Shown piece by piece: positions 3,001 to 6,000 of a stretch of 54,131 bases of DNA; within the stretch, counting starts at the first letter, position 1, and each line of letters opens with the position of its first letter. Made by a program: the position numbers. The DNA comes from an uncultured archaeon (GTDB lineage Archaea; Nanobdellota; Nanobdellia; Woesearchaeales; CAIVOO01), in contig CAIMOB010000043.1 in the NCBI GenBank assembly GCA_903842985.1, positions 1 through 54,131 of the forward strand, in the 5' to 3' direction.

Positions 3001-6000
3001 TTGTCCAGTCATCTATTAATTTATAGAGATCAAGAACGCCGAATAAACCTTCATACTTCAGCAACATTCCCTTTATTACAAGTCTTTTTTCCATTTTGCT
3101 AAAATGCGCTGTACGCAGTCTCCATATTTAATAGTTTCTTAATCTCTGTATGAAGCGTGTATGCCTCATAGTAAAGCGTGTCAACCGGCCCAAGCATGAG
3201 CTTCATCCAAAGAATCTTGTCGACAAGGAGATTATAAAGCTTTATGTAAAATGGCTTTTGCTCAAACCTTTTCTCGTAATCAAAGACGGCCTCCATTGTT
3301 ATGACTACTGTCATCCTTGCTTTATTTAATTTTTGCTTTTTTCCATCATTTGTAGCCTCAACATCTGCCATGTCCCAGATATGAAAATCAACATTCACTT
3401 TGTACATTATCCATTCTGACTGCTTTCTTTCGCCCTTAAAAGAAATCTCAACCTCTGCTCCTCTTGGGGTTGTCTTGTGCTTGTAGGCGGTTTCGTGAAC
3501 ATCATAAAACCTTCCCTTAAACCAACTGTAAACTCCTTTGTAAAGTGAGTCATAATCAAAAACACCAGAATACTTTATTTCTGCCAGCCTTTCTTTTACA
3601 CTCGGCACTCTTTTTGTTGGAACAGCCATTTTGATTAGTAATTCAGCATTACTTCTACATCCCTGCCAAATATTGTCTTTAGGTTTTCCAGGGTTTTTTC
3701 CTTAAGATAAACCTTTGGCGGCATATCAATAGACGCAAGCGCCTTCTCAAGCTCCTCAAGATTTGATTCCTTCAGGTCCTTGAATGTCCCTTCTTTTGTG
3801 ACCTTCGCCCTTGTTATGTCTTTTTCCGCCTGCTTTATGTCATGGATTATGAACGCCTCATCTCCCAGAAGCACTACCTCTCCGAATGTTTCGCCGTGCT
3901 TGACCCTGATTCTTGCCCTTTCAAACTCCCTTCCCTTTTTCCTCTGCATGTATTCTATTACAAACCTGATGAACTGGGCAGATTCCTTTTTCACTTTTGC
4001 AACTTCTGTCTTTGTCAGCTTCTTCTGGTCATAGTCCTTCTTCGCTTTCAGCACGTCTTTCATGATTCTCGCATATTTCTCAGGTATTTTCCCTGTCGCG
4101 ACCATCGCATTGTTGAAAAGATCAATCACTTCATCTTCTTTTGCCCTTTCTATTCCCTCAAGTCTCAACACGTCCCTCACAATTGAAATGATTGTTTCGT
4201 AAACCTGGACCATGCTCTCTTCTTCCTTTCTCTTTTCTATCTGTGAGAATAATTTCTTCAGCCTCATGAGGTATTTGTCGCAGTTTGAAATCAGGTCATC
4301 AAGCTCCTTGCCTGAAACATTTTTCAGCGTGCCATGCTCGAGCTGTTTTCTGATAAGTATCGCCCTTTCAAGTATTTTTATGTAAGAATCCTCAAGCAGT
4401 TTTTCCTTCTGCACGAAAATCTCCCTCATTACAACGGGAGTTTCCCTCGGCGTCGGCGGTGGAACGCCGTACATCATCAATGCAGCCTGGCTTGGGGTGA
4501 GTATCGCGTAGAAAAGGTCCTCCATTGCCATCTCATTTATTTTCATCGCAATTCTCTTCAGCACCTGCTCGCCTGTCGACATGTACATCTCAATTGCTTC
4601 ACCAGACGGCTTTATCCTTCCCATCTTCAGGAGCTGTTTCCAGGGCATGAAAATGCCTCTGTCGTAGAAAGGAATTCCATCCCTTAGGAAAGTGAAGATT
4701 ATCGGGTTTGCCTCCTTTATATTCTCCCAGAAATCAGTCAGGATGTAGACCTGGATGTTTAATTTGTTTTTTATCCCAGTTAACTCTCCTGCTTCGAGGC
4801 CCATTCCAATTATGATTGTCCTGAGCTTGTCCTTCAGCTCAGCCCTTGTCATTCTTTTAACATCTGTGTCATCTATGACGAGAAAGACATCAATGTCAGA
4901 ATCCTTTGTCGCCTTTCCCTGAACCAGCGAGCCAACAAGAACATATGCAACAATGTATTTCTCGAATTTCTTAAGAGTCATTGTCTTATGGATTTCGGCA
5001 ATCTTTATTGCAGAAAGCATTCCTGTGTCATGAATAGGCGCTGCCATTGCAATCATCTGCAGAATCTCATTTTTGCCGTCATAGCACGCCTGCCACAGGT
5101 CAGAAATCAAAAGAACCTGCGGAGCGATGTTTTCGTCAATGCCCTTTGCAGTCTCCTCAATTATCTTTGTAAGCTTCTCATTAAGCTCAAATTTGCTCAT
5201 TTTCTTTGAATCAGAATCATCAACAAGGATAAGAACGTGAATCTTGTTTTTGTCCACCTGCTCGCCTTCCTGCGGTTTTGGCGGCGGCAGCAGAGCCACC
5301 CCCATTATATAGCTTTCAAATTTCTTTACAATCTCTTTTGAGAACCTATCAAGCTTGTCCTTTATCTTTTTCAGCTTATCCTTCACTTCCTTCGGAAGCT
5401 CTGGAATCTTCTCTTGAGCACCTTCTGCTGGCTTCGCCTCATAATCAGGCCCTTCTTCTTTTTTGTTATCATCTGCCATATCAGACCATTTATAAATTAT
5501 ATATATAAAGCTTTTGTTTTTTATTTGCAAATCAAATATAGAACAATATATACCAATCAGGATTTGCAAGTCTGATAATGCCGATGCTTGGCAACTTGTT
5601 GCCAAGTCTGATAATCACAAACGAGCTTGCGAGTTGGAATTATCTTTACCCGGCCGGGGCATAGCAGGACGGGTCTGATAATCCCAGATGAGCTTGCGAA
5701 TCAGGATTATCTTTACTCCAAAATAGAAAAATTTATAAAATAACAAAAAACAATATACTCATGGCTGAAAAACCAGAGGTAACGCTTGAAAAGAAACTGG
5801 AAGAGCTTGAAAAAGTTCTGAAGCCTGAAGAAGCCTTGAAAAGAGGTGACCTGGCTCAGGCAGTTAGTGAAGCGTTTAGGGCTTCTTGCAACAAATGGCT
5901 TATTAACAAGCACGGAAGCAAGAAACTGCCTGACGGCACAGAAGTTCCATTAAAATATTCTATTGGTGATTATGACAAAAAATCAGGAGAATATAAATTT

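Follow-up and report, generated by a model that had tools for sequence, protein, structure and literature searches.

The long NTase-HEPN gene and its promoter

The window analysed here is a contig of 54,131 nucleotides from an uncultured woesearchaeal archaeon of the phylum Nanobdellota. Its minus strand carries the gene for a long protein (P0001), two small paralogues directly behind it (P0002 and P0003) and two tRNA genes, as listed in Table 1. The long gene had been proposed in an initial annotation and is real, as the reading frame from 5479 to 3635 translates to 614 residues. Inspection of the sequence revealed a TATA-like box, TTTATATA, about 30 nt upstream of the ATG. By the layout of archaeal promoters, this spacing favors the ATG over an alternative TTG at 5605. 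A scan for sigma-70 promoters gave chance-level results, that model not being apt for archaea.

Table 1. Features of the long-gene locus in window coordinates.
Feature	Position	Strand	Basis
P0001, long NTase-NTase-HEPN-HEPN-beta protein, 614 aa	3635..5479	-	ORF call, homologues, model, profile
TATA-like box and purine-rich upstream element	5502..5515	-	about 30 nt before ATG; read from sequence
NTase domain 1 (residues ~32-160)	5000..5386	-	model, profile, alignment
NTase domain 2 (residues ~161-292), G183-S184-x10-D195-x-D197 at nt 4889-4933	4604..4999	-	Pfam, model, alignment
HEPN domain 1 (residues ~293-415), UPF0332/HEPN-T type, R377-K378-x-x-E381-H382 at nt 4334-4351	4235..4603	-	2HSB matches, alignment
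Degenerate HEPN domain 2 (residues ~423-514), no His at motif position	3938..4213	-	profile, fold, alignment
C-terminal beta-meander/helix domain (residues ~523-611)	3647..3913	-	model
P0002, 176-aa KA1/TBP-fold paralogue	3099..3629	-	5 nt after long gene; 30% identical to P0003
P0003, 165-aa KA1/TBP-fold paralogue	2597..3094	-	4 nt after P0002; model, fold search
tRNA-Leu(TAA)	2462..2548	-	48 nt after P0003
tRNA-Ile(GAT)	2338..2412	-	tRNA search

Domain architecture of the long protein

As reported earlier, the only Pfam match of P0001 above cut-off is NTP_transf_2/Polbeta at residues 171-222. In an internal-repeat test, a profile built from short paralogues only (described below) matched P0001 at residues 32-160 (iE 5.9e-7), 159-414 (iE 2e-51) and 423-514 (iE 5e-8), which gives the order NTase 1, NTase 2, HEPN 1, HEPN 2 and then the beta domain. 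An AlphaFold2 model from 137 sequences has a pLDDT of 87.6 but a pTM of 0.55, so that the domains are reliable and their packing against one another is not. The domain limits of the initial annotation recur in this new model, whereas the helical region it had taken as one HEPN-like unit consists of two HEPN domains. A PDB sequence search with the C-terminal beta domain found nothing below E 0.8.

The alignment of 137 long sequences (87 close database relatives and 50 derived from genomes) bears out the claim that only the second transferase has a complete signature: G183, D195 and D197 are present in 137/137 and S184 in 136/137, while NTase 1 lacks the GS motif and the first Asp. Because of these losses NTase 1 is predicted to be inactive; the domain is also missing from shortened orthologues. 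NTase 2 has a glutamine, Q243, in 137/137 sequences in place of the usual third carboxylate. Judged from secondary structure, Q243 probably lies on the strand that bears this carboxylate in MntA (D71), a residue that serves the second Mg according to PMC7641770. Since three stand-alone MNT-like proteins of one genome (G018) likewise lack the third acid, Q243 neither proves nor excludes activity of NTase 2.

The motif of HEPN 1 in P0001 reads R-K-Q-L-E-H and is formally RX4H. R377 is found in 119/137 long forms, the others having Phe (9), Tyr (6), Trp (2) or Cys (1), and the 50 genome-derived sequences have Arg at this position in 32 cases. The remaining positions are nearly invariant, with K378 and E381 in 137/137 and H382 in 134/137 (Tyr in 3). 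When HEPN 1 is aligned with AF0298 (PDB 2HSB), rKdiEhg falls on REESDYG, and E381-H382 on D-Y. The 2HSB Tyr in the H382 column would, on this alignment, be the Tyr that is conserved in class II HEPNs.

Distribution and conservation

We searched 151 genomes (115 from the same order or family, 35 from other orders of the class, and the genome itself) with P0001 and obtained a match in every one, with E<1e-100 in 144. The phylum-wide presence previously asserted from 40 of 41 genomes is upheld, as the long gene or a shortened orthologue occurs in at least 148/151. One genome (G059) has a divergent full-length copy of 540 aa, and three (G018, G089 and G142) have orthologues of 360-377 aa with NTase 2 and HEPN 1 only, each followed by a gene that we take, by eye, to be L35Ae-like. 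For G082 and G124 the search returned only the short paralogue, and G128 was not assigned to either form. The claim of a single copy per genome fails: 144/151 genomes have at least two matches, there is a separate paralogue of ~270 aa, and G010 has two long copies. The number of homologues given before, 4019 among 8000 scored, is correct but was counted at E<=0.001 rather than 1e-30; the best 120 are indeed 602-658 aa long and 62-69% identical, apart from the protein itself and two near-copies.

The mean identity of the long gene to 20 same-order genomes is 59.5%, which ranks 16 among 86 neighboring genes (median 48.8%), most of the other 85 having been compared in one genome pair each. Two ORFs that we recognized as, presumably, Rrp41 and uS15 have 59.9% and 57.3%, and by this comparison the high conservation noted initially is of housekeeping grade. 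Searches of 72,556 plasmids, 50,697 phages and IMG/VR gave no match.

A short NTase-HEPN paralogue

A separate NTase-HEPN paralogue of ~270 aa is present in 144/151 genomes, among the matches listed, and aligns to residues 167-415 of P0001 with a probability of 100. Its G/S/D/D site is kept in 54/53/54/54 of 54 sequences. The HEPN motif of the short form is K/H-x3-H/Y, ending in His in 43, Tyr in 9 and Arg in 2 of the 54, and Arg was not seen in the column of long-form R377. In a tree of 36 rows with a midpoint root only, short forms split from long plus shortened forms with support 100/99, and most genomes have one copy of each. Two NTase-HEPN paralogues occur in nearly every genome, and the GS-x-DxD site is intact in both. 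In the genome studied here the native short gene is truncated at the ends of contigs C38 and C19. The 3.2-kb contig C42 carries a copy that is complete and clusters with those of another order; this contig is probably mis-binned. A complex prediction for the long and short pair of G067 returned a score of 0.17 (mark 0.32), a value that does not speak either way on their association.

Linked partner families

Besides P0002 and P0003, the genome has a third KA1/TBP-fold paralogue on contig C41. The family occurs in 145/151 genomes with 1-5 matches each and, among the matches listed, a member and the long gene are at most 3 kb apart in 33/101 same-order genomes, or 33 of the 36 in which the two share a contig. 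The model of P0003 (pLDDT 85) has a KA1/TBP-like fold (best Z 9.0, rmsd 2.6, 92 aligned), a common fold, with matches to KA1 domains of kinases (Z 9.0, 8.7) and METTL16 (Z 8.2, 7.9) and to TUT1 (Z 7.1). Foldseek with P0003 against PDB and viral libraries returned only low-TM helix-grip or uncharacterised matches, and ESM Atlas gave only hypothetical Nanobdellota clusters for P0002. A VapW sequence match (E 0.0037, 42 residues) was set aside, VapW being absent among the top 50 fold matches listed for P0003. A tRNA lies within 500 bp in 9/30 KA1-fold loci, which are close kin and not independent, versus 0/30 and 0/80 short-NTase loci and 1/30 long loci, the last being spurious.

The neighborhood of the short gene was analyzed in 48 loci, 28 of them close to the C42 copy. 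A ~600-aa AP_endonuc_2 barrel is encoded in 37/48 and a ~490-aa protein in 28/48, the usual order being 490-aa gene, a variable charged gene of ~190 aa, barrel and short NTase. Barrel and 490-aa protein are each found in 150/151 genomes, nearly always once. Of 139 genomes with both barrel and short NTase listed, 89 have the two no more than 5 kb apart; when the two share a contig, this holds for 89/98. The barrel is closest to MJ1311/EndoIV-like TIM barrels (PDB 3WQO; E 1.5e-18), MJ1311 being an EndoIV homologue in Table 1 of PMC2770678. It keeps the ligands of the metal site (H94, H141, E365, D418, H421, H465, D468 and E504 in 36/36) but differs from MJ1311 in its length of ~600-700 aa and in being split by a large insertion; an ordinary-length member of the EndoIV-like family is encoded beside it in 5/5 genomes examined.

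A PDB sequence search with the 490-aa protein found nothing, and ESM Atlas gave no usable match. A first profile comparison with the P0003 family reached a probability of only 2.3; with deeper alignments (hhalign) the C-terminal part reached 40.6 (E 0.0003) and the N-terminal part 7, with 25/25 controls below 1. These collinear profile matches are suggestive of a KA1/TBP domain split by an insertion of ~210 aa.

Linkage of the long gene to the short-paralogue operon is uncommon. Long and short genes lie within ~8 kb of each other in seven loci (L092, L093, L102, L103, L105, L118 and L119), and G089 has its shortened long orthologue in one block with the short gene, the barrel and the 490-aa gene. 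Metal-dependent TIM barrel and KA1/TBP-fold paralogues are linked to the NTase-HEPN genes. Given the near-universal paralogue and these linked families, further study should address the module as a whole instead of one protein: the initial description of a conserved core protein with tandem NTase and HEPN-like domains and unknown function stands, but not as a lone, single-copy protein. A membrane machine was rejected, the highest 19-residue hydropathy among eight members being 1.34, with no membrane segment.

Proposed function of the module

The housekeeping-like retention of the long gene, its twin and the partners points to a core cellular machine. Our favored explanation, which we rate at a little under an even chance, is a domesticated MNT-HEPN pair that nucleotidylylates a protein in a reversible manner, the TIM barrel serving as eraser. 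Such a core, reversible switch, like GlnD/GlnE or MntA, would have arisen by duplication and domestication of an ancient toxin-antitoxin fusion of the MNT-HEPN kind. The long protein (through NTase 2), the short paralogue or both would transfer an NMP, probably AMP from ATP, onto the side chain of a protein. As acceptor we consider first H382, which occupies the place of the HEPN-T Tyr, and second the KA1-fold subunits. The HEPN domains would act as acceptor or docking domains rather than as free RNases, and NTase 1, HEPN 2 and the beta domain as accessories. The EndoIV-like barrel would hydrolyse the phosphodiester and so reset the switch, which might, more speculatively, control translation or growth as cells pass between the free and the host-attached state.

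We favor protein nucleotidylylation for the intact GS-x10-DxD sites of both paralogues and for the exchange of His and Tyr in the 382 column (Tyr in 3/137 long and 9/54 short forms). According to PMC7641770, the GS-x10-DxD motif drives protein AMPylation in MntA. That HEPN 1 would not be a free RNase is supported by its variable Arg (F/Y/W/C in 18/137 long forms, and Arg not seen in that column in short ones). A further argument is the precedent in PMC3710099, by which NTase-fused HEPNs typically lose RNase residues and serve in docking, and domestication gave rise to GlnD/E and KNTase; to this are added weak GlnE and DrrA fold matches. The metal site, intact in 36/36, and the linkage to the short NTase on 89/98 shared contigs support the barrel as the eraser. 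EndoIV-family barrels can hydrolyse non-DNA phosphodiesters. Additional support comes from the separate encoding of a CCA enzyme (149/151 genomes), an exosome and an EndoIV-like gene (5/5 each). Against this reading are the replacement of the third carboxylate by Q243 in 137/137, the TM(query) below 0.2 of the AMPylase fold matches, and the HEPN 1 motif itself, with RX4H in 119/137 and K378, E381 and H382 as nearly invariant as an RNase site would be. Moreover, streamlined genomes tend to shed regulators, so that near-universal retention at ~60% identity may fit a core information-processing enzyme at least as well.

The next best explanation, which we consider somewhat unlikely, is an RNA end-processing or repair machine. 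In it, tRNA or rRNA cleaved by HEPN 1 and bound by the KA1-fold proteins would have its 3' phosphate cleaned up by the barrel and receive nucleotides from the NTases. The conserved HEPN 1 motif just described would be expected of such a machine, as would KA1 domains of the RNA enzymes METTL16 and TUT1 among the P0003 fold matches, but the Arg of that motif is variable and its His exchanges with Tyr, and the KA1/TBP fold is common, with kinase KA1 domains scoring as high (Z 9.0, 8.7). Neighboring genes also point to RNA, with L10e in 11/41 and L35Ae in 8/41 long-gene loci, TYW3 in 8/48 short-gene loci and a nearby tRNA in 9/30 KA1-fold loci versus 0/80 short-NTase loci; however, the tRNA-adjacent loci are close kin, and small genomes place most genes near translation genes. 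A CCA enzyme and an exosome are, besides, already present.

It is less probable still that the NTases make a linear or cyclic oligonucleotide signal in the manner of HalB or a cyclase, perhaps primed on His/Tyr, which the barrel degrades and a CBS or KA1-fold protein reads. HalB is among the sequence (E 0.0013) and fold (Z 8.9) matches, but the match is limited to the NTase core and NCBIfam HalB scores 14.4 bits against a cut-off of 190. The intact metal site of the barrel and a tandem-CBS gene in 10/41 long-gene loci agree with a signal, although the CBS link is partial and the module has no effector or membrane protein. We regard as improbable that the NTase folds are pseudo-enzymes which bind NTP-Mg as sensors, within a complex scaffolded by KA1-fold paralogues and helical insertions. 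The invariant Gln in place of the third carboxylate, the dead NTase 1 and the number of KA1-fold domains in a genome (3-5 with the 490-aa protein counted) are in line with this, but the metal-binding DxD sites are complete in both paralogues, which have further invariant polar residues as well. It is very improbable that the gene is a plain toxin-antitoxin or defence fusion that just happens to be common: its domain content is that of type VII systems, and a toxin-antitoxin module is the most probable identity according to Makarova 2019 (PMC6393860), but the family is near-universal, with one copy of each paralogue in most genomes, a long/short split supported at 100/99, no match in the plasmids, phages and IMG/VR searched, and no RX4HXY.

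Returning to the nucleotide mark and its eraser, we tentatively propose that the five families form one undescribed essential machine of Nanobdellota, and perhaps of sister DPANN phyla, that writes and erases such a mark. With the same reserve, its subunits would be the long NTase-HEPN protein, the short twin, the split barrel, the 490-aa inserted-KA1 protein and 2-4 small KA1-fold paralogues, and the mark, on protein or tRNA, may control the growth state of the symbiont, a possibility we hold at slightly less than even. Against one machine is the fact that the five families are joined by co-occurrence and linkage, and universal genes co-occur trivially. Nanobdellota have shed most biosynthesis and regulation, and they nonetheless keep ~2,500 residues of unnamed protein in these families, with an identity of the long NTase close to that of Rrp41 or uS15. 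To our knowledge, few lineage-specific essentials are known for the phylum. If the module is one machine, it would represent a toxin-antitoxin pair recruited to core housekeeping and might explain what sets the needs of these symbionts apart from those of other archaea; its conserved residues offer direct mutational tests.

Comparison with known systems

The initial annotation had allowed that the family might already stand in a published table. By description, though not by sequence comparison, this appears to be so: Table 1 of Makarova, Wolf and Koonin 2019 (PMC6393860) lists cls.004259/NEQ050 as 'MNT fused to HEPN, house-keeping context', and the long family likewise is a conserved MNT-HEPN fusion in such a context. 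In that paper cls.004259 is DPANN-specific (36/67 genomes, 2 outside) and a top-priority DPANN unknown, its conservation is held to suggest an important role, and it is most probably a toxin-antitoxin module; the passages on it give neither tandem architecture nor second paralogue, partner genes or mechanism, and the supplement searched has no entry for cls.004259. We did not find the tandem architecture, the twin or the partners described in the literature, most subscription papers and bioRxiv supplements lying outside the search. The family itself was seemingly flagged in 2019, and the multi-family module of twin and partners is the part of greater interest.

HepT/MntA type VII systems and the fused FhepTA of Shewanella (PMC7641770, PMC13000451) have a GSX10DXD NTase beside or fused to a HEPN, as here, and the long family has this motif in 137/136/137/137 of 137. 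Self-AMPylation in these systems served as the model for our favored explanation. However, those systems have a toxic DUF86-type HEPN with RX4HXY and a patchy or mobile distribution, whereas the long protein has a UPF0332-type HEPN without the XY Tyr, duplicated domains and a near-universal distribution; the word DPANN does not occur in PMC13000451. Position 384 is T/E/K/L/D/S/V, with no Tyr among these seven commonest residues (128/137 rows). P0001 scores 26.1 bits against the NCBIfam MntA cut-off of 60 and has no DUF86 match in Pfam, and the family occurs in at least 148/151 genomes and in none of the plasmids, phages and IMG/VR sequences. Apart from the NTase motif, the long protein is thus without the computed hallmarks of HepT/MntA.

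The closest HEPN by sequence (E 5.8e-5) and by fold (Z 11.7, rmsd 2.5, 101 aligned) is that of the class II HEPN-T/MNT pairs (AF0298, PDB 2HSB, UPF0332). Class II pairs are two-gene, patchy and have a D-Y motif, whereas the long protein is fused, has E-H and falls below the PF05168 threshold. According to Yao 2020 (PMC7641770), RX4H is missing from class II HEPNs, which retain a Tyr considered adenylylatable. Here the column has His in 134 and Tyr in 3 of 137, and PF05168 was found in 0/5 genomes with both paralogues.

P0001 does not reach the NCBIfam cut-offs for aminoglycoside NTases (ANT_9, 24.8 versus 340) or HalB, PADLOC gave only short NTase-core matches, and the class I CCA-adding enzyme domain tRNA_NucTransf2 (PF09249) is absent. 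Replacement of a CCA enzyme by a split CC- and A-adding pair, of the exosome or of a BER endonuclease was rejected, as the class I CCA gene, the exosome and an ordinary-length EndoIV-like gene are encoded separately in the genomes counted above.

The two best Foldseek matches of the long protein are the GlnE N-domain (E 4.8e-4) and DrrA (E 9.7e-4), both weak and overlapping with aminoglycoside NTases, and no GlnD/GlnE family is among its Pfam or NCBIfam matches at E<=1. GlnE/GlnD and DrrA combine an NTase with a HEPN-like helical domain, as the long protein does; the order NT-NT-HEPN-HEPN is peculiar to the latter.

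Paralogue copies and the assignment of contigs and records

The native short NTase-HEPN gene of G000, the genome to which the window belongs, is divided between the ends of contigs C38 and C19, and for this reason the small contig C42, which carries another short copy, has probably been mis-binned. The C42 copy groups with another order, and its closest named relatives include Pacearchaeota. Nanobdellota-like identity was observed for both the long and the short paralogue in three loci (L232, L241 and L117) whose records are titled 'uncultured Methanosarcinales' or 'Omnitrophota', and given this sequence likeness the titles are probably wrong.

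Copy number and gene form vary among the other genomes sampled. Two full-length long copies are present in G010 (L099, L100), while G092 (L095, L206) has one long copy, one short copy and a third NTase-HEPN of 249 aa that clusters with the shortened long-gene orthologues, those retaining only NTase 2 and HEPN 1. The 743-aa open frame of G139, which begins with a short NTase-HEPN, is possibly a fusion or a read-through.

Genes around the paralogues

A gene encoding tandem CBS domains and DUF7573 lies close to the long gene in 10 of the 41 loci (L162, L163, L165, L168, L170, L172, L174, L175, L176 and L092), and the family of the 268-aa membrane protein was found in 4 of the 41. In the 634-aa protein the N-terminal domain is weakly lactate/malate-dehydrogenase-like (E 0.01) and the C-terminal part is beta-rich; a family scan of this protein gave none above the cut-off.

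Both KA1-fold loci of G000 are closed by tRNA genes, the one directly after the third paralogue on C41 bearing an intron. Many tRNA genes on several G000 contigs contain introns, and ARAGORN gave some of them doubtful anticodons.

Coordinates of genes in the window and at related loci
Feature	Location	Strand	Remark
Helical 241-aa protein	window 5761-6486	+	Divergently oriented to long gene
268-aa membrane protein	window 6483-7289	-	
634-aa protein	window 7336-9240	+	
Presumed Lon-type protease	window 9868-11880	+	Recognised by eye
Presumed Kae1/TsaD-like protein	window 13324-14316	-	Recognised by eye
Presumed methyltransferase-kinase fusion	window 15165-16304	-	Recognised by eye
Third KA1-fold paralogue	G000:C41:6432-7132 (L200)		
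Short-gene operon	G000:C38:34788-38960 (L198)		Encodes the 490-aa protein, a charged protein of 198 aa, the split EndoIV-like barrel (624 aa) and the beginning of the short NTase
Short NTase-HEPN gene on small contig	G000:C42:1-3155		
743-aa open frame	L066:40-2271 (G139)
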